A stretch of DNA of 64,000 bases from Gammaproteobacteria bacterium (GTDB lineage: Bacteria > Pseudomonadota > Gammaproteobacteria > Steroidobacterales > GCA-2729495), in NCBI GenBank assembly GCA_029245525.1, contig JAQWPD010000101.1, positions 47,197 to 111,196 of the forward strand, given 5' to 3'. The notes under the pieces are model-generated. The model did not search any database and was not told the DNA's origin. It saw only the letters and a list, made by a program, of their open reading frames with translations. Shown here in pieces: positions 4,008 to 30,269 of the stretch (the stretch's first letter is position 1; the number at the start of each line of letters is the position of its first letter). Both the position numbers and the translations under genes were made by a program.

Positions 4008-4619
4008 TCAGGCGAGAGTTCGCGCAACCAAGAGGGGCAGTGCAGCCAGCCTGGCCACGGCAGTGGTCTCACTATCTGGGGAGTTCGCGACACGCACTAA
4101 ATCCGGCCAGAAGCGCGGATCGGTAGTAAAGCGCGCTAGCAATTTGCGTGGGGCCTGTTCGACAAGGTGACGAATTTCAATAAAGCTCATTGCCGCAAGT
4201 GAAGCGATTGATTCCGGCCGCAAGCCTAAGAACAATCTTGCCGCTGCGGTGTCACGACGGACCACTGACCAAATGTACGTTAGGAGCCCTGCTGCGAATA
4301 CCTTAACGTCGCTCTGCCAAGCCGGAGATGCCTCTTCGGATATGGCTGCATTTTGCTGGCGCATCCTGTCGTGGCAGCTCACCGGGGAATCTGCGCGCGA
4401 AGATAACAGAGGCGCCAATTCGACCAGCAGGCATGGAACCTCATCAAGGCTGCCATAAACCGGAAAATCGGGATGCCGCAGTGCTTGCAACGATTGCTGC
4501 GGCATGCCGAACAGGTCTTTGGTGTCTGGGGCATCCGGGTCCAGCATCAGCCTAATGAATTCTCGATTGAACTCCGCAATTTCAGGGTACACATCTAAAT
4601 CAGTGAGTTTAGCTCGCAT
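4008..4619 (-). CDS. Hypothetical protein with two FlhD-like repeats (weak similarity, from memory)
   Basis: A GGAG lies 8 nt before the ATG. The segments DTKDLFGMPQQSLQALRHPDF...LLVEL and DTAAARLFLGLRPESIASLAAMSFIEIRHLVEQAPRKLLARF both resemble the FlhD core [42 protein letters not shown]. The gene is divergent from an FlhC-family gene. Confidence 0.45.
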   Translation of the reverse strand: MRAKLTDLDVYPEIAEFNREFIRLMLDPDAPDTKDLFGMPQQSLQALRHPDFPVYGSLDEVPCLLVELAPLLSSRADSPVSCHDRMRQQNAAISEEASPAWQSDVKVFAAGLLTYIWSVVRRDTAAARLFLGLRPESIASLAAMSFIEIRHLVEQAPRKLLARFTTDPRFWPDLVRVANSPDSETTAVARLAALPLLVARTLA

Positions 4620-4793: not shown

Positions 4794-5360
4794 ATGCGTA
4801 TCACCGACCAGCGCTACAACGGCGAAATTGAACGTTTTAACCTCGCGGTCCGTATGATTGGACACGAGGCTCGTACCGGCACTATTCGAAAATGCACAGG
4901 CTTTACCGAGGATAGAATCCGCAAAATTTACGGCAGTTATTTCAAATCTAATACAGATAATGTCGTCAAGCGTCGGCGTGGTAAGTCTCCCACACAAATC
5001 AATATGTTTATTAACACCAATAATCACCAGTTCGAATCGACGGTACTGGCGTGTTTGTTTGTCATGTGCGGGGTCATAGCATTCGATACGAAAGGGATAC
5101 CGGCAGCCGCTTGCGGGATTGATAAAGTTGGGGTTGGACAACGTCTTTGCGAGGCTTTCGAACGTTATCGCCAATTGCACCCAAACCCTCATTTCTCATT
5201 TGAAAAAGCATGGGGACTATTTAATGCGTTGACCCAAGCAAATGAACTGATCTTGTCTAATTGTGAAAGCTGCAACGGCAAGTACATTCACGACAGATAT
5301 GCGCTCAACTATCACTTCTGCGCCAGCTGCGAATTGCTCGATGCGGCTGTCCGGATGTAA
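4794..5360 (+). CDS. FlhC-family transcriptional activator-like protein (4-Cys zinc site)
   Basis: GAGGGA lies 5 nt before the ATG. The protein is about the size of FlhC. The C-terminal FSFEKAWGLFNALTQANELILSNCESCNGKYIHDRYALNYHFCASC matches the FlhC pattern [31 protein letters not shown]...FACSLC. Confidence 0.6.
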   Translation: MRITDQRYNGEIERFNLAVRMIGHEARTGTIRKCTGFTEDRIRKIYGSYFKSNTDNVVKRRRGKSPTQINMFINTNNHQFESTVLACLFVMCGVIAFDTKGIPAAACGIDKVGVGQRLCEAFERYRQLHPNPHFSFEKAWGLFNALTQANELILSNCESCNGKYIHDRYALNYHFCASCELLDAAVRM

Positions 5361-6437: not shown

Positions 6438-6893
6438 ATGCCTGCAACAATTGACTTACGCGAAAAACGACGTCAGGCGATACTGAATATTATTTCGCGG
6501 GAAGCCGTCGCGCGACAATCGGTGCTCGTGGAAAAGCTTCAGGCACAGGGGTTTCAGGCTACCCAGTCAAGTGTGAGTCGTGATCTGCGCGAGATGAACA
6601 TCACCAAAAACGGGCAGAATTATGCGCCACCGCAGAATGCCAACGAGGTATCGCAAGGGCTGATGGATATGCCGGAGGGCTTTGTCCGGCAATTCGAGAC
6701 GGCTGGAGCCAATATCACCGTCATCAAAACGGCAGTGGGAGCGGCGCAACGGGTGGCCGTTTTTCTGGATCGCAGCGAATGGCCTGAGATTGTTGGCACT
6801 ATTTCAGGCGATGACACTATTTTTATTGCCACGCGTGATGCGCGCGAGCAAAAAGCTCTGCTCATCAAATTGCAAAGCAGTTTGACGATTTAA
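6438..6893 (+). CDS. argR: Arginine repressor ArgR (E. coli type)
   Basis: 151 aa. N-terminal winged helix with GFQATQSSVSRDLREM. C-terminal oligomerisation and arginine-binding motif GTISGDDTIFI. First gene of the arg cluster. Confidence 0.9.
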   Translation: MPATIDLREKRRQAILNIISREAVARQSVLVEKLQAQGFQATQSSVSRDLREMNITKNGQNYAPPQNANEVSQGLMDMPEGFVRQFETAGANITVIKTAVGAAQRVAVFLDRSEWPEIVGTISGDDTIFIATRDAREQKALLIKLQSSLTI

Positions 6894-6912: not shown

Positions 6913-8130
6913 ATGACTACAACAAATAATTCATCACCTATCCTTCTGGCTTATTCAGGCGGGCTGGATACTTCGTTCTGTGTACCTTGGCTGAAAGAGA
7001 CCTATGGTCGCCCAGTGATTACCGCCTGCGTGAACACTGGGGGCTTAAACGCAACGGCTGCAAAGAGTCTTGAAGACCGGGCAATGGCCCTCGGAGCAAC
7101 GGAGCATGTGCTTATTGAAGCCCGTGACATTTTCTTTAATCGGGTTTTAAAACACCTTATTGCGGGCAATGTCCGCCGTGGTCAGTTGTACCCGATGTGC
7201 GTGGGCGCCGAACGTGGTATTCAGGCAACGTTGCTGGCCGAGCTTGCTAAAAAGCGAGGGACAGCAACCGTTGCACATGGCTGCACAGCTGCAGGTAATG
7301 ACCAGGTTCGCTTTGAAGTTGCACTAAAAACCATCAACCCTGGCTTGGAAATTATTGCGCCGGTGCGTGACCAATCCTTCATCCGCGAAGAGCAGGTTGC
7401 TTACCTGCAAGCCGGCAACTACCCAATGCCGCCATCTGGCGCAAAGTACTCCATTAACCGGGGCTTATGGGGCGTTAGTATTGGCGGCAAAGAGACGCTG
7501 ACATCGGCAGACACTATTCCTGAAGAGGCGTGGGTGCTCTCCTCCAGCGCGCTTGACCAGCCAAAGGCTCCACAGGAGCTTGTTATCGGCTTTGAGAAAG
7601 GAGTGCCTGCAACAATCAATGGGGAAGAGCTTGCTCCGGTCAACCTGATAGAGAAGCTGGAAGCTATTGCGGGTGCTTATGGCATTGGCCGTGGCATTCA
7701 CCTCGGTGACACTGTGCTCGGCACCAAAGGCCGGGTAGCTTTCGAGGCTCCTGCGGCAGAGGTATTGCTCACAGCGCATCGTGAACTTGAAAAGCTGGTA
7801 CTCAGTTCTTTGCAGATGAGCATTAAAGAAGGTGTCTCGCTCAACTATGGCAACTTCGTGCATGAAGGTAAGCAGCTTGATCCGGTATGCCGCGACATCG
7901 AGGCGTTGCTGGAGTCTTCTCAACAACGGGTCACCGGCAGCGTAAAATTAAAACTGCGCCCCGGCAACTTATTCGTTGAGGGTGTTGAGTCAGAGTACTC
8001 TCTAATGGCGGCAACCAAAGGAGTGTATGGCGAGGCTGCTGGCGAATGGACTCCGCGCGATGCGCTCGGCTACTCAACCGTATTATCACTTTCCGGAATG
8101 CTACAAACCCGGGCAGGACAACAAAAATGA
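6913..8130 (+). CDS. argG: Argininosuccinate synthase
   Basis: N-terminal AYSGGLDTS ATP pyrophosphatase motif, HGCTAAGNDQVRFE, length 405 aa. Confidence 0.95.
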   Translation: MTTTNNSSPILLAYSGGLDTSFCVPWLKETYGRPVITACVNTGGLNATAAKSLEDRAMALGATEHVLIEARDIFFNRVLKHLIAGNVRRGQLYPMCVGAERGIQATLLAELAKKRGTATVAHGCTAAGNDQVRFEVALKTINPGLEIIAPVRDQSFIREEQVAYLQAGNYPMPPSGAKYSINRGLWGVSIGGKETLTSADTIPEEAWVLSSSALDQPKAPQELVIGFEKGVPATINGEELAPVNLIEKLEAIAGAYGIGRGIHLGDTVLGTKGRVAFEAPAAEVLLTAHRELEKLVLSSLQMSIKEGVSLNYGNFVHEGKQLDPVCRDIEALLESSQQRVTGSVKLKLRPGNLFVEGVESEYSLMAATKGVYGEAAGEWTPRDALGYSTVLSLSGMLQTRAGQQK

Positions 8131-9179
8131 AAACTGTGCTCGCAGACAAAATCGGATCGGTTGCGCTTCACAAAAGCATCAGCCAGGAGCTTCACCTAAG
8201 CCCGGAAATACCGTGCGAGGAAGGCGTGCTTATTGCCGTTGAAGTGCTGAACAATAAAGCCACTTACAACAAACTTGAACTGGTTAGCGGTCGGATGGCA
8301 CAGCTGAAGCGCGGCGATATCATCGTAGGTGCTCTCGGACATCGAAATGCCTTATTTGGTTACTCCGGTCACCTGCCAGAAACTGTAAAGCCCGGGGACA
8401 TTTTGCAGCTACTGAATATTGGTGGCGTGATTGGCGTCTGCGATTCTGTTAATGCCAATTTCGGCCAACCTTTTGAGGGTAAGGTACTGGGCGCAGTGCT
8501 CGAATTTCCGCATCTAGGCGAACGCATCGGCGTTCCGGCGCGTGTTGGTGGTGAAACGCTTGATGGATTACCGCCTCTCGATACGCAAGGCATCCCAATA
8601 GTTGCGCTTGCCGGAACCTGCATGGATTCAGGGAAAACAGCCGCCGCATGCGCAATTGTCAGCCGCCTGCGTCACCAAGGTTTTACAGTCGACGCCTTCA
8701 AGGCGACCGGTGTCGCTTTACGTCGCGATATTCTGGCTATGGAGGATGCCGGTGCGCGCAATACCGTCATTTTCAGTGATTTTGGCGTGGTTGCCAGCTC
8801 GGATGAAACCGGGCCCGCAGTGACTCGCACAATGCTAAATAAGCTGTGTGCCAAAAAACCTGACGTTGTGGTGTTTGAGCTTGGCGATGGCCTGCTAGGC
8901 ACTTATGGTGTCCAAGCGATACTGGCGGATGAAGACATTAAGAAGGCGCTATCCTGCATTATACTTTGCGCCAATGACCCTGTAGCGGCATGGGGGGGCG
9001 TCAAGCTCATGCAGCAAGACTACAACCTCGACACCAGTGCTGTTACAGGCCCTGCCACGGATAATCAGGTCGGAAAAAAATTGATCAATACCCGTTTAAA
9101 TGTGCCGGCATGGAATGCGCTGACTGATAGCACTGAGCTCGGTGATGAGGTTATCAACATTCTTAAACTGAAAAAATAG
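8127..9179 (+). CDS. Uncharacterised P-loop protein (BioD/CobQ/DUF1611-like GTxxxSGKT motif) embedded in the arg operon
   Basis: Its ATG at 8127 overlaps the argG TGA (ATGA). The N-terminal ~165 aa look like a beta-rich domain. Then comes IPIVALAGTCMDSGKTAAACAIVSRLRHQGFTVDAFKATG. I do not recognise any arginine enzyme family. Confidence 0.6.
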   Translation: MKTVLADKIGSVALHKSISQELHLSPEIPCEEGVLIAVEVLNNKATYNKLELVSGRMAQLKRGDIIVGALGHRNALFGYSGHLPETVKPGDILQLLNIGGVIGVCDSVNANFGQPFEGKVLGAVLEFPHLGERIGVPARVGGETLDGLPPLDTQGIPIVALAGTCMDSGKTAAACAIVSRLRHQGFTVDAFKATGVALRRDILAMEDAGARNTVIFSDFGVVASSDETGPAVTRTMLNKLCAKKPDVVVFELGDGLLGTYGVQAILADEDIKKALSCIILCANDPVAAWGGVKLMQQDYNLDTSAVTGPATDNQVGKKLINTRLNVPAWNALTDSTELGDEVINILKLKK

Positions 9180-9226
9180 CATAAAATTTTTTGCAGCACT
9201 GAAGTCGGTTGCATTGGACTAAAGTA

Positions 9227-10273
9227 ATGAGTGATACAGTTAAAACAGTGGTTATTGGCAGCTCCGGATATGTCGGCGGAGAGCTGCTGCGCCTGATAGC
9301 GGGGCACCCACAACTGGAGCTCGCTGCTGCAGTATCGGAGTCGAACTCCGGAATGCCCATCAATAGTGTGTTTCCGCATTTGCACAATGCACTGGGTGAG
9401 CAATGTTTTATTGGCCCGGATGAACTGCAGCAACATCTGCATGGCAAAATAGCGATATTTTCGGCCGCGCCTCATGGAGCAAGCGCGGGCATGATTGCCG
9501 ATGTTCTGGCACAAGCCAAGGACGCCGATGTGCGTGTAGTGGATGTGTCTGCTGACTTCCGCTTTGCCGATAGCGCCAGTTACTCTGCTGTTTATGGTGA
9601 ACATGGTGCTCCGGAACTGCTTGATCAGTTTGTCTGTGGACTGCCGGAACACATGCCCAATACAGAACACACGAGCGTGGGCCATCCTGGCTGTTTTGCT
9701 ACCGCTATGCTGCTTGCGGCTGTGCCGCTGCTGCAGTTGGACCTGATTGAGCCCGAACTGAACGCCTTTGGTATTACCGGCAGCACTGGCTCAGGTCAGG
9801 CGCCATCTGCGGGCACCCATCATCCGGTACGCAACTCGAATCTGTATGCTTATAAGCCGCTGGAACATCGTCATGCGCCTGAGGTTGTTGCTATCTGCAA
9901 AGCTCTAACCGGCAAAAACAGCACGCTCAACTTTATTCCCCACTCCGGCCCGTTTGCGCGGGGCATTCATATGACGGTTCAGGCTAAATTGAAACAGCCA
10001 CGGACGACCGAAGAACTGGTCGCAGAATTTACTGACTTTTATAACCACAACGAGTTCGTCACCGTGGTCAGTGGTCAGCCAAAGCTAAAAGATGTGACGT
10101 GCAGTAACTATTCACAAATAGGTATCGCCACTAATGGCGATACCGTGGTGGTATTCACGGTCATAGACAATTTAATTAAAGGTGCCGCGGGGGGCGCAGT
10201 TCAATGGATGAACCGCAAACTCGGCTTTGATGAAACACTGGGCCTGACGACACCCGGAAGTGGCTGGGGTTAA
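9227..10273 (+). CDS. argC: N-acyl-gamma-glutamyl-phosphate reductase
   Basis: VVIGSSGYVGGELLRL Rossmann motif and catalytic-Cys region GHPGCFATA. I chose the start at ATG 9227 (MSDTVK); the TTG at 9209 is the longer alternative. Confidence 0.9.
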   Translation: MSDTVKTVVIGSSGYVGGELLRLIAGHPQLELAAAVSESNSGMPINSVFPHLHNALGEQCFIGPDELQQHLHGKIAIFSAAPHGASAGMIADVLAQAKDADVRVVDVSADFRFADSASYSAVYGEHGAPELLDQFVCGLPEHMPNTEHTSVGHPGCFATAMLLAAVPLLQLDLIEPELNAFGITGSTGSGQAPSAGTHHPVRNSNLYAYKPLEHRHAPEVVAICKALTGKNSTLNFIPHSGPFARGIHMTVQAKLKQPRTTEELVAEFTDFYNHNEFVTVVSGQPKLKDVTCSNYSQIGIATNGDTVVVFTVIDNLIKGAAGGAVQWMNRKLGFDETLGLTTPGSGWG

Positions 10274-10277
10274 GGAC

Positions 10278-11441
10278 ATGAGCAACAAAAAAAATGCGGC
10301 GCAACAGGCCGAAGCCGAGCATCTGTTGCAGGTTTATGCTCAGTGGAATTTTGAGCCGGTATCCGCCAAAGGTGTGCATATTCAGTGCAAAGATCGCGAA
10401 TTGCTTGATCTTTATGGCGGTCATGCTGTCGCTGCTGTTGGCTATAGTCACCCCGCTTTGGTTAAAGCACTAGAACATCAGGCTAATACGCTATTTTTCC
10501 AAAGCAACGCTGTTGCGCTTGATGTGCGCGCAGAAGCAGCGCGCAAACTTGCTGATTTTGCGCCTCCAACGATGGACCATGTGTTTTTGGTTAATGGCGG
10601 TGCTGAAGCCAATGAAAATGCGCTGCGCATTGCTATTAAACACACTAATCGAGGCAAGGTAGTGGCTATCGAACATGGCTTCCATGGTCGGACTGCAGCG
10701 GCTGGCGCCTGCACTTGGGGCGCTAAAGATAATTGGTACAGCTTCCCGAACACGCCATTTGACGTCGATTTCCTGCCCAGAGACCAGGTTGGCGATATCA
10801 ATTCTTATATCGACAAAAATACCGCGGCCGTTATTCTGGAGCCCGTACAAGGTGTAGCTGGTGCGTATGACCTCAGCGTTGACTTTGTGCAAGGGATTGC
10901 GGAACGCTGCAAAGCTGTTGGCGCGCTGTTAATTGCGGATGAGGTACAAACCGGCATTGGGCGCTGTGGCACTGCCTTTGCAATTGAACTGTATGACATT
11001 ACGCCGGATATCATCACCACAGCTAAGGCGTTGGGTGGAGGTTTTCCTGTCGGCGCAGTAATTGTGGCAGAGCATCTTAAAGATGCCGTCCACAATGGCG
11101 ACCTTGGTACTACCTTCGGTGGTGGTCCACTCGCCTGTGCGGTGGTTTCTGCGGTGCTTGATGTAATTAACAAGGAAAACCTAATAAGCAACGTGTGTGA
11201 GCAAACAGAATTCTTGCACGCAAATCTGCCAGCCGGGCCGGTGGTTGGCATTCAGGGCAAAGGTTTTCTTGCCGGATTAATCTGCGACCGGCCAGCAAAA
11301 GAAGTGGCCGCGCAACTTCTGAAACGCAACATACTGGTAGGCAGTAGCTCTGATCCTAAAGTGATCCGCTTGTTGCCGCCATTGACGCTGCAGCGCGAAC
11401 ATATACAACAACTGCTCGATGCTTTGGCAGATATTAAATAG
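10278..11441 (+). CDS. argD: Acetyl/succinyl-ornithine aminotransferase (class III PLP aminotransferase)
   Basis: AAGGA lies before ATG 10278. Motifs include FHGRT, ADEVQTGIGRCG, and TTAKALGGGFP carrying the PLP lysine. Position within the arg operon. Confidence 0.85.
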   Translation: MSNKKNAAQQAEAEHLLQVYAQWNFEPVSAKGVHIQCKDRELLDLYGGHAVAAVGYSHPALVKALEHQANTLFFQSNAVALDVRAEAARKLADFAPPTMDHVFLVNGGAEANENALRIAIKHTNRGKVVAIEHGFHGRTAAAGACTWGAKDNWYSFPNTPFDVDFLPRDQVGDINSYIDKNTAAVILEPVQGVAGAYDLSVDFVQGIAERCKAVGALLIADEVQTGIGRCGTAFAIELYDITPDIITTAKALGGGFPVGAVIVAEHLKDAVHNGDLGTTFGGGPLACAVVSAVLDVINKENLISNVCEQTEFLHANLPAGPVVGIQGKGFLAGLICDRPAKEVAAQLLKRNILVGSSSDPKVIRLLPPLTLQREHIQQLLDALADIK

Positions 11442-11467: not shown

Positions 11468-12472
11468 ATGAAAGAGTTTCAAGATTTGGCCCTGATCACT
11501 CCGGAAGAAGTAGAAAATCTACTATCTCTGGCTCAGCGCCTAGAAACACACCCAGAGCCACGGGCTTTGGAAGGGAAGATTCTGGCACTGCTGTTCCTGA
11601 ATCCTTCGCTGCGCACATTAGCTTCATTTCAGGCGGCAATGGGTCGTTTGGGAGGTAACTCATTTGTCATCTCGCCAGACATGTCAATTCACGGATTAGA
11701 AACGCGTCGCGGTATCGTGATGGACGGACAAGCTGCTGAACATATTCGGGAGGCTATTCCCGTTATCGCATCATACGCAGATGCTCTTGGTATCCGAGCG
11801 TTTGCTGAACGCGAAGAACTTGATCATGATCTGGCCGACAAAGATTACATGGCATTTCGTGAGCTGGTAAAAATACCGCTCATCAACATGGAATCTGCCA
11901 TCAACCATCCCTGTCAAAGTCTAGCGGACTGGAAAACAATGGACGATTTGGGGATGCCACGCGTGGGCGGCAAGTTTGTGTTGAGCTGGGCCTATCACCC
12001 ACGGGCATTGCCACTGGCAGTGCCCTCAGCAACAGTGCATATGGCGGCGATGCGCGGGATGGACGTTACGGTTTTACGCCCAGAAGGCTTTGAACTGCCT
12101 GAAAGTATCATGAAAAAGGCACAAGAAGCAGCGCAGTTCTCCGGCGGGTCGGTAAGCGAGACTGATGACAAAGCTGCCGCACTGGAAGGTGCTCATGTGA
12201 TCTATGCAAAATCATGGGCATCAACAAAGCATTATGGTCACCTGCCTAACGACGAAAAAGCACGGGAAGGATTAAAACATTGGTGCATCAACAACAGTTG
12301 GTTTGATACCACGCAAAAAGATGCACGATTTATGCATTGTCTGCCGGCGAGACGCGGCATCGTTGTGGCTGATGAAGTTCTGGATGGACCACGCAGTGTG
12401 GTTATTCCGGAAGCGCGTAACAGAATGTATGCACAAATGGCTGTGCTGCATCAAATGCTAGGAACTAAGTAA
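11468..12472 (+). CDS. argF': N-acyl-L-ornithine carbamoyltransferase (AOTCase/SOTCase family, ArgF')
   Basis: The motifs SLRT, VMDGQAAEHIREAIPV, INMESAINHPCQSLAD, LSWAYHPRALPLAVP, YAKSW, HCLPARRG and VVIPEARNR match the Xanthomonas/Bacteroides acyl-ornithine transcarbamylases rather than classical OTCase. Confidence 0.8.
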   Translation: MKEFQDLALITPEEVENLLSLAQRLETHPEPRALEGKILALLFLNPSLRTLASFQAAMGRLGGNSFVISPDMSIHGLETRRGIVMDGQAAEHIREAIPVIASYADALGIRAFAEREELDHDLADKDYMAFRELVKIPLINMESAINHPCQSLADWKTMDDLGMPRVGGKFVLSWAYHPRALPLAVPSATVHMAAMRGMDVTVLRPEGFELPESIMKKAQEAAQFSGGSVSETDDKAAALEGAHVIYAKSWASTKHYGHLPNDEKAREGLKHWCINNSWFDTTQKDARFMHCLPARRGIVVADEVLDGPRSVVIPEARNRMYAQMAVLHQMLGTK

Positions 12473-12475
12473 CTG

Positions 12476-13402
12476 ATGATTAATAACACTAAAACCCGGG
12501 ACATCGTAGTAGCGGCGCTCACTCACGCGACGCCGTACATACGCATGTACAAAAACAAGGTCTTCGTTATTAAGGCCGGCGGTGAAGTGTTTGAGAACAT
12601 GGGAACCACCAAGACACTGGTTGAACAAATAGCAATACTTCATCAGATCGGCATTCGCGTGGTCATTGTTCATGGTGGCGGCCCGCAGTCAACGCGATTA
12701 GCCGACACACTAAATATCGAAACCAAGATGATCGAGGGACGTCGGGTAACAGATGCCAATATGCTGAAGGTATCGGCCATGGTTCTAAATGGTCAAATCA
12801 ACACCCAGATTCTGGCCGCTTGCCGAAGTCTAAGTGTGCCGGCCGTGGGAATCAGCGGCGTGGATTGTGGACTCATTAAGGCCAGCAAGCGTACTCCTGT
12901 AAAAATAGGTGATTCGACCGTGGACTTCGGTTTCGTCGGTAATATTGATTCAGTTGATATCAGTGTATTGCAGACGCAACTGGACAGTGGGTTGGTGCCG
13001 GTCATCAGCCCGTTATCAGCAGATGGCGATGGCACACTGCTGAACATCAATGCCGATACCGTCGCAGCAGAAATCGCCTCTGCATTGGGTGCGGAAAAAC
13101 TCATTCTTGCAACCGGCGCAGCGGGTATTCTTGGAAACGTCGATGACCCTGGCTCAATTATTAGCTATGTCGATATCGAGGGCTTACAGGTACTGCGAAA
13201 CAATGGCTCGTTAAAAGCCGGCATGTTGCCAAAGGCCACTGCTATCGAATCGGCTATTCAAGGTGGTGTATCGCGTGTGCATATGATCTCGTACAAGGTA
13301 CCCAACAGCCTACTGCTGGAAATCTTCACTAATGAAGGTACCGGTACACTAATCGTCAAACACATTGAAGCACTCTCCGCGGCAGAACAGGGGCAGGACT
13401 AA
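12476..13402 (+). CDS. argB: N-acylglutamate kinase
   Basis: Amino acid kinase fold, VIKAGGEV, VVIVHGGGPQ, NINADT. 308 aa with no fused GNAT domain. Confidence 0.9.
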   Translation: MINNTKTRDIVVAALTHATPYIRMYKNKVFVIKAGGEVFENMGTTKTLVEQIAILHQIGIRVVIVHGGGPQSTRLADTLNIETKMIEGRRVTDANMLKVSAMVLNGQINTQILAACRSLSVPAVGISGVDCGLIKASKRTPVKIGDSTVDFGFVGNIDSVDISVLQTQLDSGLVPVISPLSADGDGTLLNINADTVAAEIASALGAEKLILATGAAGILGNVDDPGSIISYVDIEGLQVLRNNGSLKAGMLPKATAIESAIQGGVSRVHMISYKVPNSLLLEIFTNEGTGTLIVKHIEALSAAEQGQD

Positions 13403-14595
13403 TGTCATCAAACACACGCTTGTGGGATAAAGGTCAGCCATTGGATGAGCGTATCCTCCGTTACACTGCAGGTGACGATCACATACTTGATGCTCGCCTG
13501 GTTCAGTATGATGTGCGCGCTTCTATTGCACACGCTGGCATGCTGCATGCGCAGGGGCTGATAAGCAAAGCCGATTACACTGCCATTGAAGCCGGTCTGG
13601 GTGCGCTAGCTGAATCTTACGCTGCAGGAGAATGGTGCATCTCGCTAGAAGATGAGGATGTCCATACTGCGCTAGAGAGTCGGCTCACCGATGCCATAGG
13701 TGATGCTGGAAAACGAATTCACTTAGGTCGCTCTCGTAACGATCAGGTGTTGGTCGCACTTCGTTTGTATTTGCGCGATGCGGCACAACAACTTGCAACA
13801 GCCGCACAAACCACCGTTACTGCCTTAGAGGAACTAGCAGACAAGCAAGGGCAGGTTGCCCTCCCCGGCTACACACATATGCAACAGGGCATGCCCAGCT
13901 CTGTGGATCTGTGGGCAGGTGCTTATGCCGCTGAGTTGCAGGATGATATCGCGGGCATTAAACGCACATTGGGGCGGATAAACCTCAGCCCTTTAGGCAG
14001 TGCAGCGGGCTATGGCACGCCCAATGTTCCGGTAGACCGGCAGTTTACGGCCGATGCTTTAGACTTCGACAAAGTGCACGAACCCGTCACAGCAGTGCAA
14101 CTCTCGCGCGGCAAAGCCGAAGCATCGTTAGTGTTTGAACTGTCCTTGCTTATGCAGGACCTAGGGCGACTCGCCTCCGACCTGCTGTTATTTTATACGC
14201 AGGAGTTTGCGTTTATTAGCCTGCCCGACAACATAACCACCGGCTCCTCAATTATGCCGCAGAAGCGTAATCCCGATGTACTGGAGCTTGTGCGAGCGGC
14301 ATCGGCAACCATGCAAGGCAGTCTAGTGGAAATAATGAGCATCACTGCTAAATTACCCTCAGGCTATCAGCGCGACCTGCAGCGCATTAAGTCGCCTCTT
14401 TTTAAGGCAATTGATCTCGCCCAAGATTCAGCGCTGATCATGACCAATCTTGTCAATGGCCTGAGCTTCAATGCCGAGAATATCGTATTGGATCCATCAG
14501 TTCATGCAGCTGCCGATGCTAACAAGATGGTTGTTGAAGAGGGTATTAGCTTTCGTGATGCCTATCGCCGGGTTGGCGAGGCTTATAAAAAGTGA
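13402..14595 (+). CDS. argH: Argininosuccinate lyase
   Basis: Fumarate-lyase family motifs TGSSIMPQKRNPD and HLGRSRNDQV. Its ATG shares 1 nt with the argB TAA. Confidence 0.9.
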   Translation: MSSNTRLWDKGQPLDERILRYTAGDDHILDARLVQYDVRASIAHAGMLHAQGLISKADYTAIEAGLGALAESYAAGEWCISLEDEDVHTALESRLTDAIGDAGKRIHLGRSRNDQVLVALRLYLRDAAQQLATAAQTTVTALEELADKQGQVALPGYTHMQQGMPSSVDLWAGAYAAELQDDIAGIKRTLGRINLSPLGSAAGYGTPNVPVDRQFTADALDFDKVHEPVTAVQLSRGKAEASLVFELSLLMQDLGRLASDLLLFYTQEFAFISLPDNITTGSSIMPQKRNPDVLELVRAASATMQGSLVEIMSITAKLPSGYQRDLQRIKSPLFKAIDLAQDSALIMTNLVNGLSFNAENIVLDPSVHAAADANKMVVEEGISFRDAYRRVGEAYKK

Positions 14596-14810
14596 TTGGC
14601 ACACAACCGAGCGTATTGCTTCTAGGCGTAATTTTTAGCCTTAGCCTTACGGCCTGTGGTCAGTCTGGCGCCCTGTATTTACCTGGTTCTGAGCCCATCA
14701 ACTCGGCAAGCTCAGCGCCTAACACGGAAACAGCTGCTGATGAACAGGACGAACTCACAGAGCTTACCGAATCGACAATACCGACCTCTGATACCGAAGT
14801 AACCGAATGA
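14592..14810 (+). CDS. lptM: Small lipoprotein of the LptM/YifL type
   Basis: GTG start overlaps the argH stop (GTGA). Lipobox SLTAC is followed by GQSGALYLPG, as in E. coli YifL (LTGCGLKGPLYFP). Acidic low-complexity tail. Confidence 0.7.
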   Translation: MIGTQPSVLLLGVIFSLSLTACGQSGALYLPGSEPINSASSAPNTETAADEQDELTELTESTIPTSDTEVTE

Positions 14811-22994: not shown

Positions 22995-23147
22995 TTAGAA
23001 CAATGTATAGATAAACGGTGCCGCTGCAGAACCCTGGGCAACAACAATCAATACACCAAGCAACAACATCACAAGAATAATCGGCGCCAACCAGAACTTT
23101 TTGCGCTCTCTCATGAAGCCCCACAAATCCTTACATAAATCAATCAT
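22995..23147 (-). CDS. DUF5989-type micro-protein (50 aa, one TM); absent from the ORF track
   Basis: Hand translation gives MIDLCKDLWGFMRERKKFWLAPIILVMLLLGVLIVVAQGSAAAPFIYTLF*. The ATG shares 1 nt with the SxtJ TGA. The motif FMRERKKFWL...APFIYTLF is the signature of the small protein found with SxtJ and carbamoyltransferase. Confidence 0.75.
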   Translation of the reverse strand: MIDLCKDLWGFMRERKKFWLAPIILVMLLLGVLIVVAQGSAAAPFIYTLF

Positions 23148-23602
23148 CAGAAGGGGTTCTCCAGGTTTTTAATCGGATTGTCTTTTGAAATAACCCTATA
23201 GGTGTCAACACTGTCATCCAGCTTGCGTGCCATGGCGTCTTTGCCCATAACTCGCATAACCAAACCAATCGGGGCAAACATTAGGTAGAAAACAATGCCC
23301 ATAATCAGGGGAGTCATAACCTTGCTCATCATCAGGCCGAAGCTCATCCAAACATGATGCACGCCTTTCAGACTCATCGGGGCAACCAAGCCCCATACAA
23401 TCAGCAGGCCTCCCAGTAGAAATGGCCAACGCAACGCTGTTTGAGATGGCTCTAACGCACCCCAAAAATCATAGCTGTGAAGGAATCTAATTTCTGAAAA
23501 CAGCCATGGAAAAAGAAAACCGAACAGACCGATAATAATTAGGCCGGTAACAACCCCGAAATCACGTAAACCCTTCTTGTCTAAAACAGGAATTTCATGC
23601 AT
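23147..23602 (-). CDS. SxtJ-family membrane protein
   Basis: 151 aa. KGLRDFGVVTGLIIIGLFGFLFPWLF plus further TM segments. Position immediately after the carbamoyltransferase gene. Confidence 0.7.
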   Translation of the reverse strand: MHEIPVLDKKGLRDFGVVTGLIIIGLFGFLFPWLFSEIRFLHSYDFWGALEPSQTALRWPFLLGGLLIVWGLVAPMSLKGVHHVWMSFGLMMSKVMTPLIMGIVFYLMFAPIGLVMRVMGKDAMARKLDDSVDTYRVISKDNPIKNLENPF

Positions 23603-23607
23603 AGCTA

Positions 23608-25458
23608 TTAATCCAACTCAAACTCATCTTTCCAATCATCGGTACCCTCCCACTTGGGCTGATCTTCTTTAGAAAGCAGAAAGTTATCAACAATCAAATA
23701 ATCCATCTCAGTGCGCATAAAGCATCGATACGCATCATCGGCAGTCATCACAATAGGCTCGCCGCGGACATTAAACGAGGTATTTACTAATACGCCGCAG
23801 TCTGTTTTCTTATTAAACTCACTAAGCACATTATAGAAATACGGATTAGTCTCTTTGTGCACGGTTTGGATTCGGGCCGAATAGTCAACATGAGTAATTG
23901 CGGGAAGCTTTGAGCGAGGCACATTCAATTTTGCAATGCCAAATAACTTATCCTGCTCCTCGGTCATTGCAATACGCTGCTCTTCAACAATTGGAGCAAC
24001 AATCAGCATATATGGGCTGGGGCGGTCTTGAACAAAATATTCGGACACGCGCTCAGCTAAAACTGCAGGGGCAAATGGCCGGAATGACTCACGGTATTTA
24101 ATTTTAAGGTTCATCACCGACTGCATCTTCGGGCTGCGCGGATCACCGATGATAGAACGGCCGCCTAAAGCACGCGGACCAAACTCCATACGGCCCTGAG
24201 CCATACCAATAACATTTTCGGTTGCCAGAATCTCGGCAACGCGGGGGAAGAAGTCAGCGTCTTCAAGCTGTGTATAAACCGCACCGTACGCATCCAGATC
24301 TTTTTTAATGCCTTCCTCGGTGAACTTAGGCCCAAGATAAGAACCGCTCATCAAGTCATTCTTGTTGTCGACGGCGCGCGGGCCATCTTTATAGTGATGC
24401 CAAATAACAGCAGCAGCCCCCAAAGCGCCGCCAGCATCACCTGCAGCAGGCTGAATCCAGATATCTTTAAACGGACCATCACGAAGAAGAATCCCGTTAG
24501 AAACACAGTTAAGCGCTACGCCACCAGCCAAACACAGATAGTCCGCACCGGTTTCTTTGTGCAATGTTTTGGCAAGCCGCATTACTACAATCTCAGTAAC
24601 TTTCTGAATCGATGCTGCAAGATCCATTTCCCGCTGAGTAATTTCAGTTTCTGCTGTACGCGCCGGGCCACCAAACAGATCTGCGAACTTATCGTTCGTC
24701 ATTGTCAGACCGGTGCAGTAATTAAAATAGGACATATCGAGGCGGAATGTGCCATCTGCCTTCAAGTCGAGCAGATTCTCCAAAATCAGATCAACATACT
24801 TAGGCTCACCGTAGGGCGCCAGACCCATTAGCTTGTATTCGCCTGAGTTAACTTTAAACCCGGTAAAATACGTAAATGCTGAATACAGGAGCCCCAAGGA
24901 ATGGGGGAAATCAATTTCCCATAAAGGCTTGAGGTGATTGCCCTCACCAAGCCATGCCGACGTTGTGGCCCACTCGCCAACACCATCGAGACACAACACC
25001 GCAGCCTTGTCATAAGGACTGTAGAAAAATGCAGAAGCCGCATGAGATTGATGATGCTCAGCAAACATAAGATCGGGCAGTTCTTTTTGTTTGCAGCCTG
25101 CTAATTTCGAGAGCTCACGCTTTAACGTGGTTTTTAAATAAAGCTTCTCTTTCAACCAAACAGGCATCGCTGCAATAAATGAACGGAAACCTTGTGGCGC
25201 ATAAGAAAGATACGTTTCGAGTAGCCGCTCAAACTTAACCAGAGGCTTGTCATAGAAAACGACATGATCAACATCAGTTAGATTGATACCAGCTTCTTGA
25301 AGACAGTACTGAATCGCTTCGGCAGGAAAACCCGGATCATGCTTTTTACGAGTAAACCGTTCTTGTTGAACCGCCGCAACAATATCCCCATCGTGGATCA
25401 ATGCCGCTGCACTGTCATGATAGTAGGCCGAAAGCCCTAAAATATAAGTCCCGCTCAC
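23608..25458 (-). CDS. Carbamoyltransferase (NodU/CmcH family)
   Basis: 616 aa. N-terminus ILGLSAYYHDSAAALIHDGDIVAAVQQERFTRKKHD (ASKHA/Kae1-like) and C-terminal YrdC-like carbamoyl-AMP domain (VNTSFNVRGEPIV). Confidence 0.9.
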   Translation of the reverse strand: MSGTYILGLSAYYHDSAAALIHDGDIVAAVQQERFTRKKHDPGFPAEAIQYCLQEAGINLTDVDHVVFYDKPLVKFERLLETYLSYAPQGFRSFIAAMPVWLKEKLYLKTTLKRELSKLAGCKQKELPDLMFAEHHQSHAASAFFYSPYDKAAVLCLDGVGEWATTSAWLGEGNHLKPLWEIDFPHSLGLLYSAFTYFTGFKVNSGEYKLMGLAPYGEPKYVDLILENLLDLKADGTFRLDMSYFNYCTGLTMTNDKFADLFGGPARTAETEITQREMDLAASIQKVTEIVVMRLAKTLHKETGADYLCLAGGVALNCVSNGILLRDGPFKDIWIQPAAGDAGGALGAAAVIWHHYKDGPRAVDNKNDLMSGSYLGPKFTEEGIKKDLDAYGAVYTQLEDADFFPRVAEILATENVIGMAQGRMEFGPRALGGRSIIGDPRSPKMQSVMNLKIKYRESFRPFAPAVLAERVSEYFVQDRPSPYMLIVAPIVEEQRIAMTEEQDKLFGIAKLNVPRSKLPAITHVDYSARIQTVHKETNPYFYNVLSEFNKKTDCGVLVNTSFNVRGEPIVMTADDAYRCFMRTEMDYLIVDNFLLSKEDQPKWEGTDDWKDEFELD

Positions 25459-26188: not shown

Positions 26189-26869
26189 TTAAATTATTGC
26201 TGAAACCGCGTTCATGTATTTCGAATGCCTCGCGACCCTGATAGGCAAACCATTAAGCACTTGAGTAGCCAGCTGACGCTGAGCACGATCAAACTTACAC
26301 TCAACAACAACAGTCTCAGGCAGATTCGCCTTCAGGCGAACATTTGGTCGAGGATTTTTCCGCTGATCCCACACCATCTGATCGAAGTCGAGGGTAACCC
26401 GAATACGGCCACATGCGCTCAAATAATAAAAACGCCGATAGTGATTAATCATTACAGCCCAAGGATTTTGCTCCAGCCAGAGACGACCCTCGTGATCAAG
26501 CTGAAGGGCTATCATGTCGCGGATTTCTGTCCATGTTGTGCGGTCATCAACCGGCAGGTCTTTAACTTTGTACAGCAGTTTCCAGCCGTACTGATTACGC
26601 TTTTGCTTGATCTCAAGCTTGCCGGGAGACGGCAGTAAACTGTCCCCATACCAGCGATACCGTACTTTTGTGCGGTCACTTACGCCGGCCAAGTTCTCGG
26701 CATACGCTGAGTACTCCAAGGTATCAAAGTAAACATTATGCACCGTGCGCATCGGATACGCCTCTGAAAATGCCAGAGGGTGCAACCGCAGCCACTGGTA
26801 CACCACATCTGTATCACGCCGATTCGTAACAAACTTAATTTCTTGTCGGGCGCCGTCAGGAACTAACAT
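26189..26869 (-). CDS. VTC-domain (CYTH-like polyphosphate polymerase domain) protein
   Basis: RQEIKFV...VHNVYFDTLEYSAY...RTKVRYRWYGD...KLEIKQKRNQYGWK matches the bacterial VTC-domain pattern. The ATG shares 1 nt with the upstream TAA. Confidence 0.75.
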   Translation of the reverse strand: MLVPDGARQEIKFVTNRRDTDVVYQWLRLHPLAFSEAYPMRTVHNVYFDTLEYSAYAENLAGVSDRTKVRYRWYGDSLLPSPGKLEIKQKRNQYGWKLLYKVKDLPVDDRTTWTEIRDMIALQLDHEGRLWLEQNPWAVMINHYRRFYYLSACGRIRVTLDFDQMVWDQRKNPRPNVRLKANLPETVVVECKFDRAQRQLATQVLNGLPIRVARHSKYMNAVSAII

Positions 26870-29583
26870 TACTGGCGATCCTCCGGTTTAGGCCGCCGTA
26901 ACCCTGGCCTCATAACAGTGTTATAAAGTTCATCCACATCAATATCCTCCGGAGCAAACTCCTCGCCATCGAGAATTACCCGACTGCCGGTCTGCACCAC
27001 TGCGACCGCACGATTACCCTGCAGAGTCATATTCCTGGCCACTACTTCGGCGATGCCAAACTCTGGCTTCTTTATGTAAGCCATCAAGGCAGAAATTCTG
27101 GAATTAAAAATAGAAGAGTTTGCTATGTCGAGACGAGAGCCATCCTTGGCAGCAGCGCCCGTCCCGCACGCTTCAATAAATAAGTTTTCAGCCTGCACCT
27201 GACTGGCCTCGCCGACAGAGAGCGCTTTATCGTCGACATTTAAAAACCGTGTGCCATTCAGGCTAATATTACTTGTGCTGACGTCAACAGCATCTCCGCC
27301 TCCAGCGGTGCCGATACCTTCAAACAGACCGCCGATAATTTTGCCGGTGCAGAAATCACAGTCAAACCCATCGGACAAGGTATCAATAATCTGTAAATTA
27401 CTAATCGCAAAATCTGAGCTAATAATATTTAGTCCGTCCTCACCCTTATGATGCAGGATTGAGATGTCGGACATATCAACAGAATTGCGGTAAAAATTTG
27501 TGCCGCCCATCAGCTTCCAAACACCCAACTCCACGCCGCGAGTATCTTCCACAACCACATTGCTCCAGCGCGAACGCTCCGGCGCAGCAAACGCAACAAA
27601 CCCCAACCAGCTGTCCGCACCTGCCTCGGCGAGCAATTGCACAGGCTCCGCGACAGTGCCTTCAAAAAAGACATTGCCGCGAACAATCAAGGCAGCATCC
27701 TCGGCAAAACGCAAAGTAGTACCGGGACCCGCTTGAAGGGAGTAGCCTTCGGGGAAGGCCATTGTACTAGTGACTGACCACTCTCCTGCCGCAATACTCA
27801 CCTTTTTTGCAGACTCATCAAGCGATAAAAAGCTTGATATGGCCAACAGCTCATCGATACCCATAACAGGGATGGGGTTGCGATTAACCAAGGGCGCCTG
27901 CTTGACCGCTTTAATATTAAAGCCACGATCCTGTTGCCTACCCAAAACCAGAATGGTCTCCTCTGCCAAATCTGCAGGCAACTCTATTCTAGTCACCGGT
28001 GAAATATCATTAACTGCTCTGCTTTGAAGCTCCAGGGGCAAACCCGGCAAAACAATCTGTTGCCCATCCACCTCTATAGCATCTATCGTCACGGGGTAAG
28101 GAATCGCCGATGCCAAATCAAGATACGTCCGATCGCCGTCAATAACCTGGTATGCACGCAGCGCATTGGGGTAATAACTGGAAACACCTTGAGGCTGGCC
28201 AACCAAAAAATTAGCCGCTTGCAATTGGGTGTCATTAAGCGATCCGAGAAACGCCGCACGCTGCTCAATTTCATTCAAGGGATACTTAGGCAGAAAGAAA
28301 TATTCACTGTGCAGAATGTCAAGAAGCCGGCGCTCCTCTTCGCGCATGCTATCAATCAGCTCGCCTGTCTCAACTCTTGCGACCAAATCAGATAAAACCT
28401 CTTTGTAGCGTGCGAAAATTTTTGGATCCTGCAACATTTGCTGCACCATCGCTTCTTTCGCAGAGATATATTCATCGCCTGATTCACGCTGCTTAAGGCT
28501 TGCATCATAAGCAATGGGCTCCATCTTGAGCGTTATGGGGTTCATGTAAAATCGCTGGTTATGCCAGCGGATCGCATGAAACGCTCCCATTAACTCACTG
28601 ACCGCTAAGTAAGCCCCCATCGTATTAGCATCAAAAATTTCCGATGCTGCAACACGACCCTCACTGAAGGCACGAAGCATTCCTGAGGCAATCTGCGACT
28701 GACCATAGAGCGTGGGTGAATCGCTCAGCTTACCGCCCTGAAATACATCCGTAGCAGCATTGCGGAAATCATCGTAAACACCACCGAAGCCATTACCGCG
28801 AGGACCATCGAACGAACTAAAAACAAGGTCCTCATCGTAGCGGACAATAACGCCCTCACGGCGCGACTGCGACTCAAGCAACTCTTTCGAGAAGTGCTCT
28901 TCCAGTGCCATGATGCCAAGATCATTGCCGTTAAGCATCATGTTAACGTACAGATAACGCGGTGTCAGAACACCATAGTCCCGTAAAACATGGAAGTACA
29001 AATTCTCCGAATGGTAACCGCGCACAGCTGGGTTCTGTACGGAAAAATTCCGCATCCCGAGATAGGTTTCGCCTTTACGGACCTGCACCCGAAAGGACCA
29101 TTTTTCACCTCGCACGTGATCGGTAAAGTCTCCTTTCAAACGGATTTTTACAGGAATTGTGTTATCGCGACCACGAATTTTAGCCTTAACGAATGAGTCT
29201 TCCGTCTGGACAATACGCCCTCGGATCAAGGCTTCATCGCGCTGCTCATAGATAGCGCGCATATCTCGAAACTTCACATCAAGAACAAGGTCTGGAATAT
29301 CCCCATCAGAGCTCACGCTTGCTATGACATTGGGCCCTGCTTGCAAACTGGCGCTCAGCAGTCCTGGGCCATTATCAAATGCGGCATGCCCCCTTTCCCA
29401 AGGAAAGAGCAATATAGGGCCGTACTCGGCCTTTAGGTAATTGCTTGAAAAGAGCTTGGGATTGCCCAAACCTTCAATCAGGTAGGCGCAAACCAGCAGC
29501 ACCGGCACGCCCAAAATAAGCAGCACAGATGGTTTGGGGAAACGCCGCTTACCTCTGGCCGGCTTGCCGCCTTTGAGCTGCAT
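26869..29583 (-). CDS. Membrane-anchored CotH kinase-family protein with C-terminal parallel beta-helix repeats
   Basis: N-terminal TM segment SVLLILGVPVLLVCAYLI. CotH-like core YFHVLRDYGVLTPRYLYVNMMLNGNDLGIMALEEHFSKELL. The C-terminal ~330 aa contain Gly/Asn/Asp-rich repeats typical of right-handed beta-helices. Confidence 0.7.
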   Translation of the reverse strand: MQLKGGKPARGKRRFPKPSVLLILGVPVLLVCAYLIEGLGNPKLFSSNYLKAEYGPILLFPWERGHAAFDNGPGLLSASLQAGPNVIASVSSDGDIPDLVLDVKFRDMRAIYEQRDEALIRGRIVQTEDSFVKAKIRGRDNTIPVKIRLKGDFTDHVRGEKWSFRVQVRKGETYLGMRNFSVQNPAVRGYHSENLYFHVLRDYGVLTPRYLYVNMMLNGNDLGIMALEEHFSKELLESQSRREGVIVRYDEDLVFSSFDGPRGNGFGGVYDDFRNAATDVFQGGKLSDSPTLYGQSQIASGMLRAFSEGRVAASEIFDANTMGAYLAVSELMGAFHAIRWHNQRFYMNPITLKMEPIAYDASLKQRESGDEYISAKEAMVQQMLQDPKIFARYKEVLSDLVARVETGELIDSMREEERRLLDILHSEYFFLPKYPLNEIEQRAAFLGSLNDTQLQAANFLVGQPQGVSSYYPNALRAYQVIDGDRTYLDLASAIPYPVTIDAIEVDGQQIVLPGLPLELQSRAVNDISPVTRIELPADLAEETILVLGRQQDRGFNIKAVKQAPLVNRNPIPVMGIDELLAISSFLSLDESAKKVSIAAGEWSVTSTMAFPEGYSLQAGPGTTLRFAEDAALIVRGNVFFEGTVAEPVQLLAEAGADSWLGFVAFAAPERSRWSNVVVEDTRGVELGVWKLMGGTNFYRNSVDMSDISILHHKGEDGLNIISSDFAISNLQIIDTLSDGFDCDFCTGKIIGGLFEGIGTAGGGDAVDVSTSNISLNGTRFLNVDDKALSVGEASQVQAENLFIEACGTGAAAKDGSRLDIANSSIFNSRISALMAYIKKPEFGIAEVVARNMTLQGNRAVAVVQTGSRVILDGEEFAPEDIDVDELYNTVMRPGLRRPKPEDRQ

Positions 29584-30269
29584 TAGACGCTTGGAAGATG
29601 ATTCTGGTCGAGGAAGGTAATGCTGATGTCAGGGAATGCTTCGCGCAACGAGTCGACCAAGCCACTCAATGACTGGTCATCACGTAAATCGACAAGGTAG
29701 GTTGCTGATAACATCGCCTCACGAATATCATAGCGGCGTAAATCGCCTTTTGCAGCATGACTGACAATCACTTTATTTATTTCTTCAAGCTTACCTTTCT
29801 GCGTTGCTTGATCGCCTTCCCAATCCAGAGACAAGAATAGCTGACGGCCGGTATCACCTTGGCGAACCCATTTGAGACCCGCCATGGCACCGAGAATAAA
29901 CAGGGTAGCGATTACCGTCGGTACAGTCTGAGATGCACCAAGGCCAAGGCCAACAGCAATAGAAATAAAGAGGTAGGCCAATTCTTCAGGCTCTTTAATC
30001 GGTGTACGGAAGCGCACGATAGAGAGTGCGCCAACCAAACCCAACGACAAGGCGAGAGACGATTTAACGACCATAATAATCAGCACAACCGTTAGTGAAA
30101 CAAACGGAAATACCTGCGCAAACTCATCACGATTAGAAAGTGTTGAACCAAAACGTTTAAAGTGCCATCGGACGATCATCGAAAGAATAACGGCCACAAT
30201 AAGATTGAGCAGTAACTCAGGGATGGATAGTGGGGCATCGGAGCCAAAGGCTGAAATTTCGTCAAGCAT
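29583..30269 (-). CDS. DUF4956-domain membrane protein
   Basis: LLLNLIVAVILSMIVRWHFKRF...SLGLVGALSIVRFRTPIKEPEELAYLFISIAVGLGLGA is characteristic of DUF4956. First gene of the triad. Confidence 0.75.
   Translation of the reverse strand: MLDEISAFGSDAPLSIPELLLNLIVAVILSMIVRWHFKRFGSTLSNRDEFAQVFPFVSLTVVLIIMVVKSSLALSLGLVGALSIVRFRTPIKEPEELAYLFISIAVGLGLGASQTVPTVIATLFILGAMAGLKWVRQGDTGRQLFLSLDWEGDQATQKGKLEEINKVIVSHAAKGDLRRYDIREAMLSATYLVDLRDDQSLSGLVDSLREAFPDISITFLDQNHLPSV

Follow-up and report, generated by a model that had tools for sequence, protein, structure and literature searches.

A conserved two-domain protein of arginine operons and its predicted role as an N-succinylglutamate synthase

Gene X and the arginine operons that carry it

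A cluster of arginine biosynthesis genes in the order argR-argG-X-argC-argD-argF'-argB-argH was analysed in a stretch of 64,000 nucleotides, hereafter the window, from an uncultured gammaproteobacterium (assembly GCA_029245525.1, contig JAQWPD010000101.1, positions 47,197 to 111,196). Gene X, the subject of this report, lies on the forward strand at 8127–9179 and encodes a protein of 350 amino acids (aa), from an ATG at 8127 to a TAG at 9177–9179. The ATG start and the TGA that terminates argG (8128–8130) overlap as ATGA (aaaATGAaaact). An earlier note on this DNA had proposed the same coordinates, length and overlap, and these are borne out by the sequence; the peptide cited there, IPIVALAGTCMDSGKTAAACAIVSRLRHQGFTVDAFKATG, corresponds to residues 155–194 of X.

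The cluster begins with the arginine repressor gene argR (6438–6893; Pfam Arg_repressor and Arg_repressor_C, TIGR01529 E = 1e-31), followed by argG, coding for argininosuccinate synthase (6913–8130; TIGR00032, 305 bits against a cut-off of 268). Downstream of X, and like the preceding genes on the forward strand, are argC (9209–10273; TIGR01850, 312 bits, cut-off 234), argD for the N-acylornithine aminotransferase (10260–11441; Aminotran_3 E = 1e-90, TIGR00707 E = 1e-97), argF' for the N-acylornithine carbamoyltransferase (11468–12472; NF003384, 336 bits, cut-off 288), argB for the N-acylglutamate kinase (12476–13402, 308 aa; TIGR00761, 208 bits, cut-off 151) and argH for argininosuccinate lyase (13402–14595; TIGR00838, 331 bits over model positions 23–389 of 455), after which polA follows. 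The Pfam and NCBIfam assignments support the gene order given in the earlier note, as well as the two gaps it had recognised in the operon, namely the first step and the deacylase, since neither gene type is present there. The ArgB protein consists of the kinase domain alone, without a GNAT domain, AA_kinase being its sole Pfam match. No ArgA, ArgJ, GNAT or M20 (ArgE-like) deacylase was detected among the 53 open reading frames (ORFs) scanned across the 64-kb window, a set from which a few ORFs of at least 150 aa (e.g. 54683–59302) were left out.

X is a genuine gene and not a chance ORF, because it belongs to a large family of homologues, lies in conserved clusters and forms a tight junction with argG. 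More than 7,200 homologues were retrieved at E ≤ 1e-3, with a typical identity of about 70% across metagenome-assembled genomes of Gammaproteobacteria; all of them are annotated as 'hypothetical', and Pfam domains are absent throughout. When representatives at 50% identity were searched exhaustively, the family comprised 1,382 clusters. At the argG-X junction, the two genes overlap by 4 or 1 nucleotides (nt) in 27 of 78 related loci, and the spacing lies between -8 and +9 nt in 61 of the 78. With a median identity of 63% to its orthologues, X is on a par with ArgG, ArgB and ArgH and ahead of ArgC, ArgD and ArgR. The gene thus encodes a strongly conserved two-domain protein and is translationally coupled to argG.

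X is embedded in arginine operons across several phyla. The gene order of the window is almost invariant among 83 related loci, and an arginine operon setting was found for nearly all of these loci of close relatives as well as for six of the seven distant members sampled. In five of six distant loci checked, X overlaps the start of argC by 1–11 nt. Two of the distant loci (L092 and L094) hold mini-operons of X-argC-argD-argB only, which would represent exactly the segment leading from glutamate to N-acylornithine if X performs the first step. An M20 protein is encoded in three further operons, X-argC-argD-argB-M20-argR-argG-argH (L090, where this protein is ArgE/DapE-like), argR-argG-X-argC-argD-argF'-argB-M20-argH (L095) and argG-(109-aa ORF)-X-argC-argD-argF'-argB-M20-argH (L096, from which argR is absent). 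Since L095 and L096 cover all other steps and X is their sole unassigned enzyme-sized gene, X becomes the candidate for step 1. This context of distant members is the strongest evidence for the step at which X is predicted to act.

A fusion between X and ArgB was also found. The 626-aa protein P0257 (L084:10001-11881, also in L085–L087) comprises an X module at residues 4–305 and an ArgB-type amino-acid kinase domain at residues 363–597. It is identical on four contigs from four samples, and its gene is divergent from an arginase gene (TIGR01229, 230 bits). In its logic, this fusion mirrors the synthase-kinase fusions of ArgA and NAGS-K. An apparent X-ArgC fusion (P0169) was rejected as an assembly or frameshift artefact, as neighbouring genes on the same contig are also merged. 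On contig_55462 (L088), argR and argG, X and argC, and the OTCase gene and argB are each merged, most likely through frameshift errors in the assembly, so that apparent fusions on contigs of this kind are not to be trusted.

Immediately behind argH, two kinds of genes were observed. A single related species has a gene there for a GNAT protein of 172–176 aa (L003:16715-17245, also L002). Its interpretation as a short N-acetylglutamate synthase was discarded: the protein is generic, with 19.7 bits against a TIGR01890 cut-off of 203, and confined to that species. In about 10 related loci (e.g. L093:16980-17465 and L069:16581-17018), and also in Steroidobacter denitrificans, a gene for a hotdog thioesterase (4HBT; MenI/EntH-like, TIGR00369) lies just downstream of argH on the same strand; it is not found in the window. 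Identification of this recurrent gene as a thioesterase ruled it out as a GNAT or a deacylase.

The synthase idea for the X family has already been published as a prediction (GapMind 2026 preprint). According to the preprint, minimal medium supports growth of S. denitrificans DSM 18526 although no ArgA is recognisable, and the arginine cluster of this strain holds a hypothetical protein, ACG33_RS14135 (A0A127FCT3), which was predicted to be an N-succinylglutamate synthase (GapMind 2026 preprint). Homologues of this protein are virtually always located in arginine operons and never alongside a Pseudomonas-type ArgA, a Foldseek search returned a weak match to DgcN (7XRJ, E = 1.4e-7, with an r.m.s.d. 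of 5.6 Å), and position 92 is occupied by A, P, S or V in 90% of the 70 ArgF' neighbours (GapMind 2026 preprint). The published case is built on gene context, on the anti-correlation with ArgA and on the weak DgcN match.

In our data, X and the S. denitrificans protein P0437 (ACG33_14140, CP011971.1) share 61% identity over 350 of 350 residues (E = 1e-165), and P0437 occupies the equivalent slot in an argR-argG-X-argC-argD-argF'-argB-argH cluster. As P0437 is the only hypothetical gene of that cluster, we infer that ACG33_14140 is RefSeq ACG33_RS14135. Judged by full-length identity and by the shared operon slot, X is the orthologue of the published candidate. The two have in common their operon position, a neighbouring ArgF' with a residue other than Glu at position 92 and their lineage (Steroidobacteraceae, Woeseiaceae and related Gammaproteobacteria); no essential difference separates them, X being the version from an uncultured relative. 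What the sequences and models add to the preprint are the mini-operons, the operons with an M20 gene, the fusion to ArgB and a signature of three residues in ArgF', together with the orphan fold of the N-terminal domain and the BioD-type catalytic residues described below.

Fold and conserved residues of X

The X sequence gave no match above threshold in searches of Pfam, NCBIfam and PDB (phmmer). At E ≤ 0.1, neither a GNAT nor an ArgJ (Ntn) match was found in Pfam or NCBIfam, and Peptidase_M20 was likewise not matched in these two libraries. An AlphaFold2 model of high confidence was built on 58 diverse homologues (predicted local distance difference test score, pLDDT, 96.8; predicted template-modelling score, pTM, 0.92). 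It displays an all-beta N-terminal domain (residues 1–126, encoded at 8127–8504), a linker, and an alpha/beta P-loop domain (residues 157–350, encoded at 8595–9176). The 11 strands predicted within residues 1–126 agree with the beta-rich N-terminal half that had been proposed from the sequence. Modelled alone, the N-terminal domain kept a pLDDT of 93.9, and positions S11, G33, E51, G71, R73, G81, P84, G100, G103 and G122 are conserved in the 58-sequence alignment. Foldseek found no structural relatives of this domain (best E = 1.2 against PDB and 1.1 against the BFVD viral library). An internal duplication, considered on account of two K-x-G-D-I motifs, was unsupported (hhalign probability 14% over 8 columns).

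When the whole model was compared with PDB by Foldseek, the P-loop domain alone was matched, and this about equally across the SIMIBI class: Ffh/FtsY (E = 2.5e-6), BioD (2.6e-6), the DUF1611 structure 2OBN (2.2e-5) and HypB (3.8e-5). Only generic SIMIBI nucleoside triphosphatases (NTPases) were retrieved from PDB in this way, and no acyltransferase-specific fold relative was among them. The 58-sequence family profile gave weak matches to SIMIBI proteins among PDB sequences as well, namely FtsY (2e-4), BioD (3e-4) and MobB. In the light of Foldseek, the profile search and hhalign, the modelled X combines a P-loop domain of the SIMIBI type, similar to those of BioD and DUF1611, with an orphan beta-domain.

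Residues reminiscent of BioD are conserved in the P-loop domain. A deviant Walker A loop, G163-T-C-M-D-S-G169-K170-T171 (8613–8639), has the GTxxxxGKT spacing seen from G8 to T16 in BioD. The invariant K192 (8700–8702) aligns with BioD Lys37, the second catalytic lysine, and the invariant E251 of an ELGDG motif (8877–8879) aligns with Glu115, the Walker-B-like Mg ligand. The 58 homologues share P84, G169, K170, K192, E251 and D284 without exception, and at least 90% of them have T171. The hhalign comparison with E. coli BioD, whose sequence was checked against PDB 1A82, placed X residues 159–259 on BioD residues 4–123 over 101 columns (probability 71%, E = 3.6e-5) and paired G163 with G8, K170 with K15, T171 with T16, K192 with K37 and E251 with E115. 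An alignment with the M. tuberculosis BioD, obtained with the family profile, agrees on the counterparts of K192 and E251. We take BioD K15, T16, K37 and E115 to be the residues for Mg-ATP binding and phosphoryl transfer, and their conservation in X suggests a catalytically competent site for a nucleotide or a nucleotide-like ligand.

The sequence relationship between X and BioD is marginal, given the hhalign probability and the matches below the Pfam thresholds (CbiA in 36 and AAA_26 in 13 of the 58 members, none at threshold), and the template-modelling score of the BioD fold match, normalised to the target, was 0.53. X shares with the BioD/SIMIBI carboxylate-activating synthetases the Walker A spacing, the second lysine and the Walker-B-like glutamate, and these enzymes are a top-ranking fold match. 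Unlike BioD, X has an extra beta-domain of some 150 residues, and at its C-terminal end about 90 more residues lie outside the alignment. Enzymes of the BioD class form C-N bonds via phosphorylation of a carboxylate or carbamate; nucleotide use by X is hypothetical.

The resemblance to DUF1611 and its member DgcN, on which the earlier note had relied, proved weak. X scored 11.9 bits against DUF1611_C (PF07755; cut-off 25) and its S. denitrificans orthologue 17.3 bits. Sub-threshold matches occurred in 35 of the 58 family members with a maximum of 24.6 bits, none reaching the cut-off. These matches span profile positions ~10–50 of 201, that is, some 40 residues around the Walker A loop. None of the 58 sequences matched DUF1611_N (PF17396), even with the limit relaxed to E ≤ 1. 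In the Foldseek comparison, 2OBN ranked only 17th (TMq 0.40 over 239 columns), behind Ffh/FtsY and BioD, and the DgcN structure 7XRJ was not among the top 50 matches; the family profile matched no DUF1611 chain among PDB sequences at E ≤ 10. Membership of X in DUF1611 was consequently ruled out by the Pfam threshold and by the domain architecture, BioD and the signal recognition particle GTPases fitting the fold equally well or better.

X resembles DUF1611 proteins in a P-loop domain whose Walker A loop is of the GTxxxxGKT type and, should the role predicted for X hold, in the N-acylation of glutamate by the characterised member (DgcN, D-glutamate N-acetyltransferase, EC 2.3.1.312). In X, the orphan all-beta domain stands in place of DUF1611_N. 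The predicted substrates also differ, L-glutamate and a succinyl group for X, D-glutamate and an acetyl group for DgcN. The DgcN/DUF1611 argument is thus weaker than implied by the earlier note and by the preprint.

Predicted reaction of X and competing explanations

The nature of the acyl group was approached through ArgF'. Glu92, Asn185 and Lys302 (Xanthomonas campestris numbering) mark the N-acetylornithine transcarbamylase, whereas the succinyl enzyme has A, S, P, V or Q at position 92, P at 185 and V, I or E at 302 (PMC4581275). Alignment to 3KZC and 3L02 placed A90, P182 and V299 of the window ArgF' at these three positions, the 20-residue tag offset of the Xanthomonas structures being consistent at all three sites, and the best-scoring PDB chains for this protein were the E92A and E92S mutants. 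Ala and Pro, combined with V, A or S, were found in all 67 full-length ArgF' proteins encoded beside X homologues, with one ambiguous residue (X). The corresponding triplets are S/P/V, Q/P/E and A/P/V in the distant operons and A/P/A in S. denitrificans. Since the window ArgF' carries the succinyl signature at all three specificity residues, the intermediates of the pathway are predicted to be N-succinyl compounds, as they are in Bacteroidetes. For this protein, the name 'N-acetylornithine carbamoyltransferase' given by NCBIfam or automatic annotation is probably incorrect, because ArgF' passes the NF003384 cut-off yet has all three succinyl-marking residues.

Taking operon context and acyl signature together, we infer that X N-succinylates L-glutamate and so opens, as its first committed step, an arginine pathway of the succinyl type; we consider this reaction probable. 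X would convert L-glutamate into N-succinyl-L-glutamate, which ArgB, ArgC and ArgD would transform into N-succinylornithine. Carbamoylation by ArgF' would yield N-succinylcitrulline, from which a desuccinylase encoded elsewhere (M20/DapE-like, at a guess) would free citrulline for ArgG and ArgH. With succinyl-coenzyme A (succinyl-CoA) as donor, binding of the nucleotide-diphosphate moiety of CoA would fall to the P-loop domain, and the novel beta-domain would supply the glutamate site. The earlier note had suggested a non-canonical N-acylglutamate synthase; comparative genomics supports this idea well and the independent published prediction coincides with it, with the change that the acyl group is predicted to be succinyl and not acetyl.

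Succinyl-CoA appears to be the most probable acyl donor. It takes somewhat more than half of the confidence placed in the synthase function and, considered on its own, stays a tentative choice. It is favoured because of the DgcN precedent and because activated acyl groups are used by all characterised step-1 enzymes. To our knowledge, every one of these draws either on an acyl-CoA (ArgA-type) or on the acetyl group of N-acetylornithine (ArgJ).

Several observations weigh against the synthase function. Assignment of the whole X family is a prediction from sequence, explicitly so in the GapMind entry. One family member, from Planctomycetota (L091), lies outside any arginine context. The GNAT protein of L002 and L003 could in principle be the real synthase. 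The X-ArgB fusion is genuine, but being a single cluster it lends only weak support to the role of X. The fold argument for an acyltransferase, as derived from the model, is non-specific, and no family member among the 58 scanned reaches the Pfam DUF1611 threshold.

The main mechanistic alternative is based on the BioD-like features. X may be an ATP- (or GTP-) dependent succinate:L-glutamate ligase, in which the BioD-like domain makes succinyl phosphate and the glutamate amine attacks it, no CoA thioester being involved. All of the context evidence for step 1 applies equally to such an enzyme, the Walker A spacing is that of BioD, the invariant K170, K192 and E251 and the largely conserved T171 (≥90%) are aligned with BioD residues, and BioD ranks near the top of the fold matches (E = 2.6e-6). 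We nevertheless regard a ligase as unlikely. The hhalign probability is just 71% over 101 columns, BioD Asp54 has no aligned counterpart in X, and the P-loop residues might just as well hold the diphosphate group of CoA. In addition, the reliance of all characterised step-1 enzymes, as far as we know, on an activated acyl group does not favour it, nor does DgcN (EC 2.3.1.312), which is the only characterised P-loop-type glutamate N-acyltransferase and is classed as CoA-dependent. If X were such a ligase, it would represent a third, evolutionarily independent start of arginine biosynthesis and the first without acyl-CoA, with a beta-domain of previously unseen fold.

It is less probable still that X serves one of the arginine enzymes as an accessory NTPase, for instance as a SIMIBI-type regulator, an assembly factor or a metallochaperone, the synthase being encoded elsewhere and unrecognised. 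Non-enzymatic SIMIBI NTPases (Ffh/FtsY, HypB and MobB) are indeed among the best fold matches, a GNAT gene adjoins the operon in one related species, and one family member was found outside any arginine context. Such a role fits poorly, however, with the X-argC-argD-argB mini-operons and with complete operons that are short of step 1 only. X is also conserved to the same degree as the core enzymes, and in the alignments it lacks the G3E and GTPase specificity motifs while having the second lysine of the BioD type. In the prototroph S. denitrificans, no ArgA-like protein was found (GapMind 2026 preprint).

X could also be an N-succinylcitrulline desuccinylase, or an ArgJ-like transacylase moving the succinyl group from N-succinylcitrulline or N-succinylornithine to glutamate and thus serving both missing steps. 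With neither ArgA nor ArgE present in the window operon or in S. denitrificans, a recycling transacylase would account for both absences economically. Either role we judge to be very improbable, since X shares operons with M20 deacylases of the ArgE/DapE type (L090, L095 and L096), is also found in mini-operons with argB, argC and argD only, and has no similarity to the ArgJ (Ntn) or M20 families. We further know of no precedent for amide hydrolysis or transacylation by a P-loop NTPase fold. The co-occurrence with M20 enzymes likewise makes it unlikely that X covers the deacylase step in addition to the first one.

In Bacteroidetes, synthesis of N-succinylglutamate has been assigned genetically to the GNAT protein BT3761 and desuccinylation to the DapE-like M20 protein BT3549. 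That succinyl-arginine pathway, to which SOTCase and an N-succinylglutamate kinase also belong, resembles the one in the window in its logic, operon style, SOTCase-type ArgF' and predicted product. BT3761 is a GNAT acyl-CoA transferase, whereas X has no GNAT similarity; if the synthase prediction holds, X would be an analogous, unrelated solution. The classical enzymes, i.e. ArgA (amino-acid kinase domain plus GNAT), ArgJ and the bifunctional NAGS-kinase, hold the pathway position predicted for X, and the classical N-acetylglutamate synthases show no relationship to it in sequence or fold.

The first step of arginine synthesis is the one most often 'missing' in automated genome reading. A step missed in this way would make such tools wrongly predict arginine auxotrophy in the lineages bearing X, i.e. 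Steroidobacteraceae, Woeseiaceae and related Gammaproteobacteria, which are abundant in sediments and soils, as well as Acidobacteriota- and Myxococcota-like ones. Should X be an N-succinylglutamate synthase, the succinyl-type pathway would be far more widespread than Bacteroidetes, and at least one further unrelated enzyme would exist for step 1. The conserved BioD-type residues make the choice between CoA and ATP chemistry a worthwhile question.

Other features of the window

The ArgH protein of the window is a short form of 397 aa without ASL_C2, in which the ~60 C-terminal residues are missing; this form is common to 58 related loci. In the distant X-bearing loci L089, L090 and L096, ArgH has 441–470 aa, with ASL_C2 in the first two. 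The gap between argH and polA is occupied by an ORF of 72 aa (14592–14810, forward strand), whose GTG start overlaps the argH stop. It encodes a small lipoprotein of the LptM type (PF13627, 30.5 bits, cut-off 27.3) with the lipobox LSLTAC followed by GQSGALYLP.

On the other side of the operon, upstream of nudC and argR, lies a divergent gene pair, 4008–4619 (reverse strand) and 4794–5360 (forward strand). The product of the latter is FlhC-like (29.8 bits against a cut-off of 27). The former gave no Pfam match in the window, but faint or weak matches to FlhD were obtained for the genes syntenic with it in L001 and L002. The pair may represent diverged FlhDC-type regulators kept beside the arginine operon in this lineage.

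Three other regions, all on the reverse strand, deserve mention. At 39578–40795, an ORF of 405 aa combines part of a fatty-acid desaturase (residues 25–238) with a fragment of an ISL3-family transposase (311–396), which suggests an insertion sequence remnant fused to, or truncating, a desaturase gene. At 23147–25458, a carbamoyltransferase of 616 aa (Carbam_trans_N/C) precedes a small protein of 151 aa that is SxtJ-like, a pairing reminiscent of saxitoxin-type tailoring genes in a region that is otherwise housekeeping. The cluster at 26189–30269 encodes a VTC-domain protein (226 aa), a CotH-kinase-like protein (904 aa) and a DUF4956 protein (228 aa); it may be a polyphosphate-related module, and an inorganic pyrophosphatase gene (30556–31203) adjoins it.

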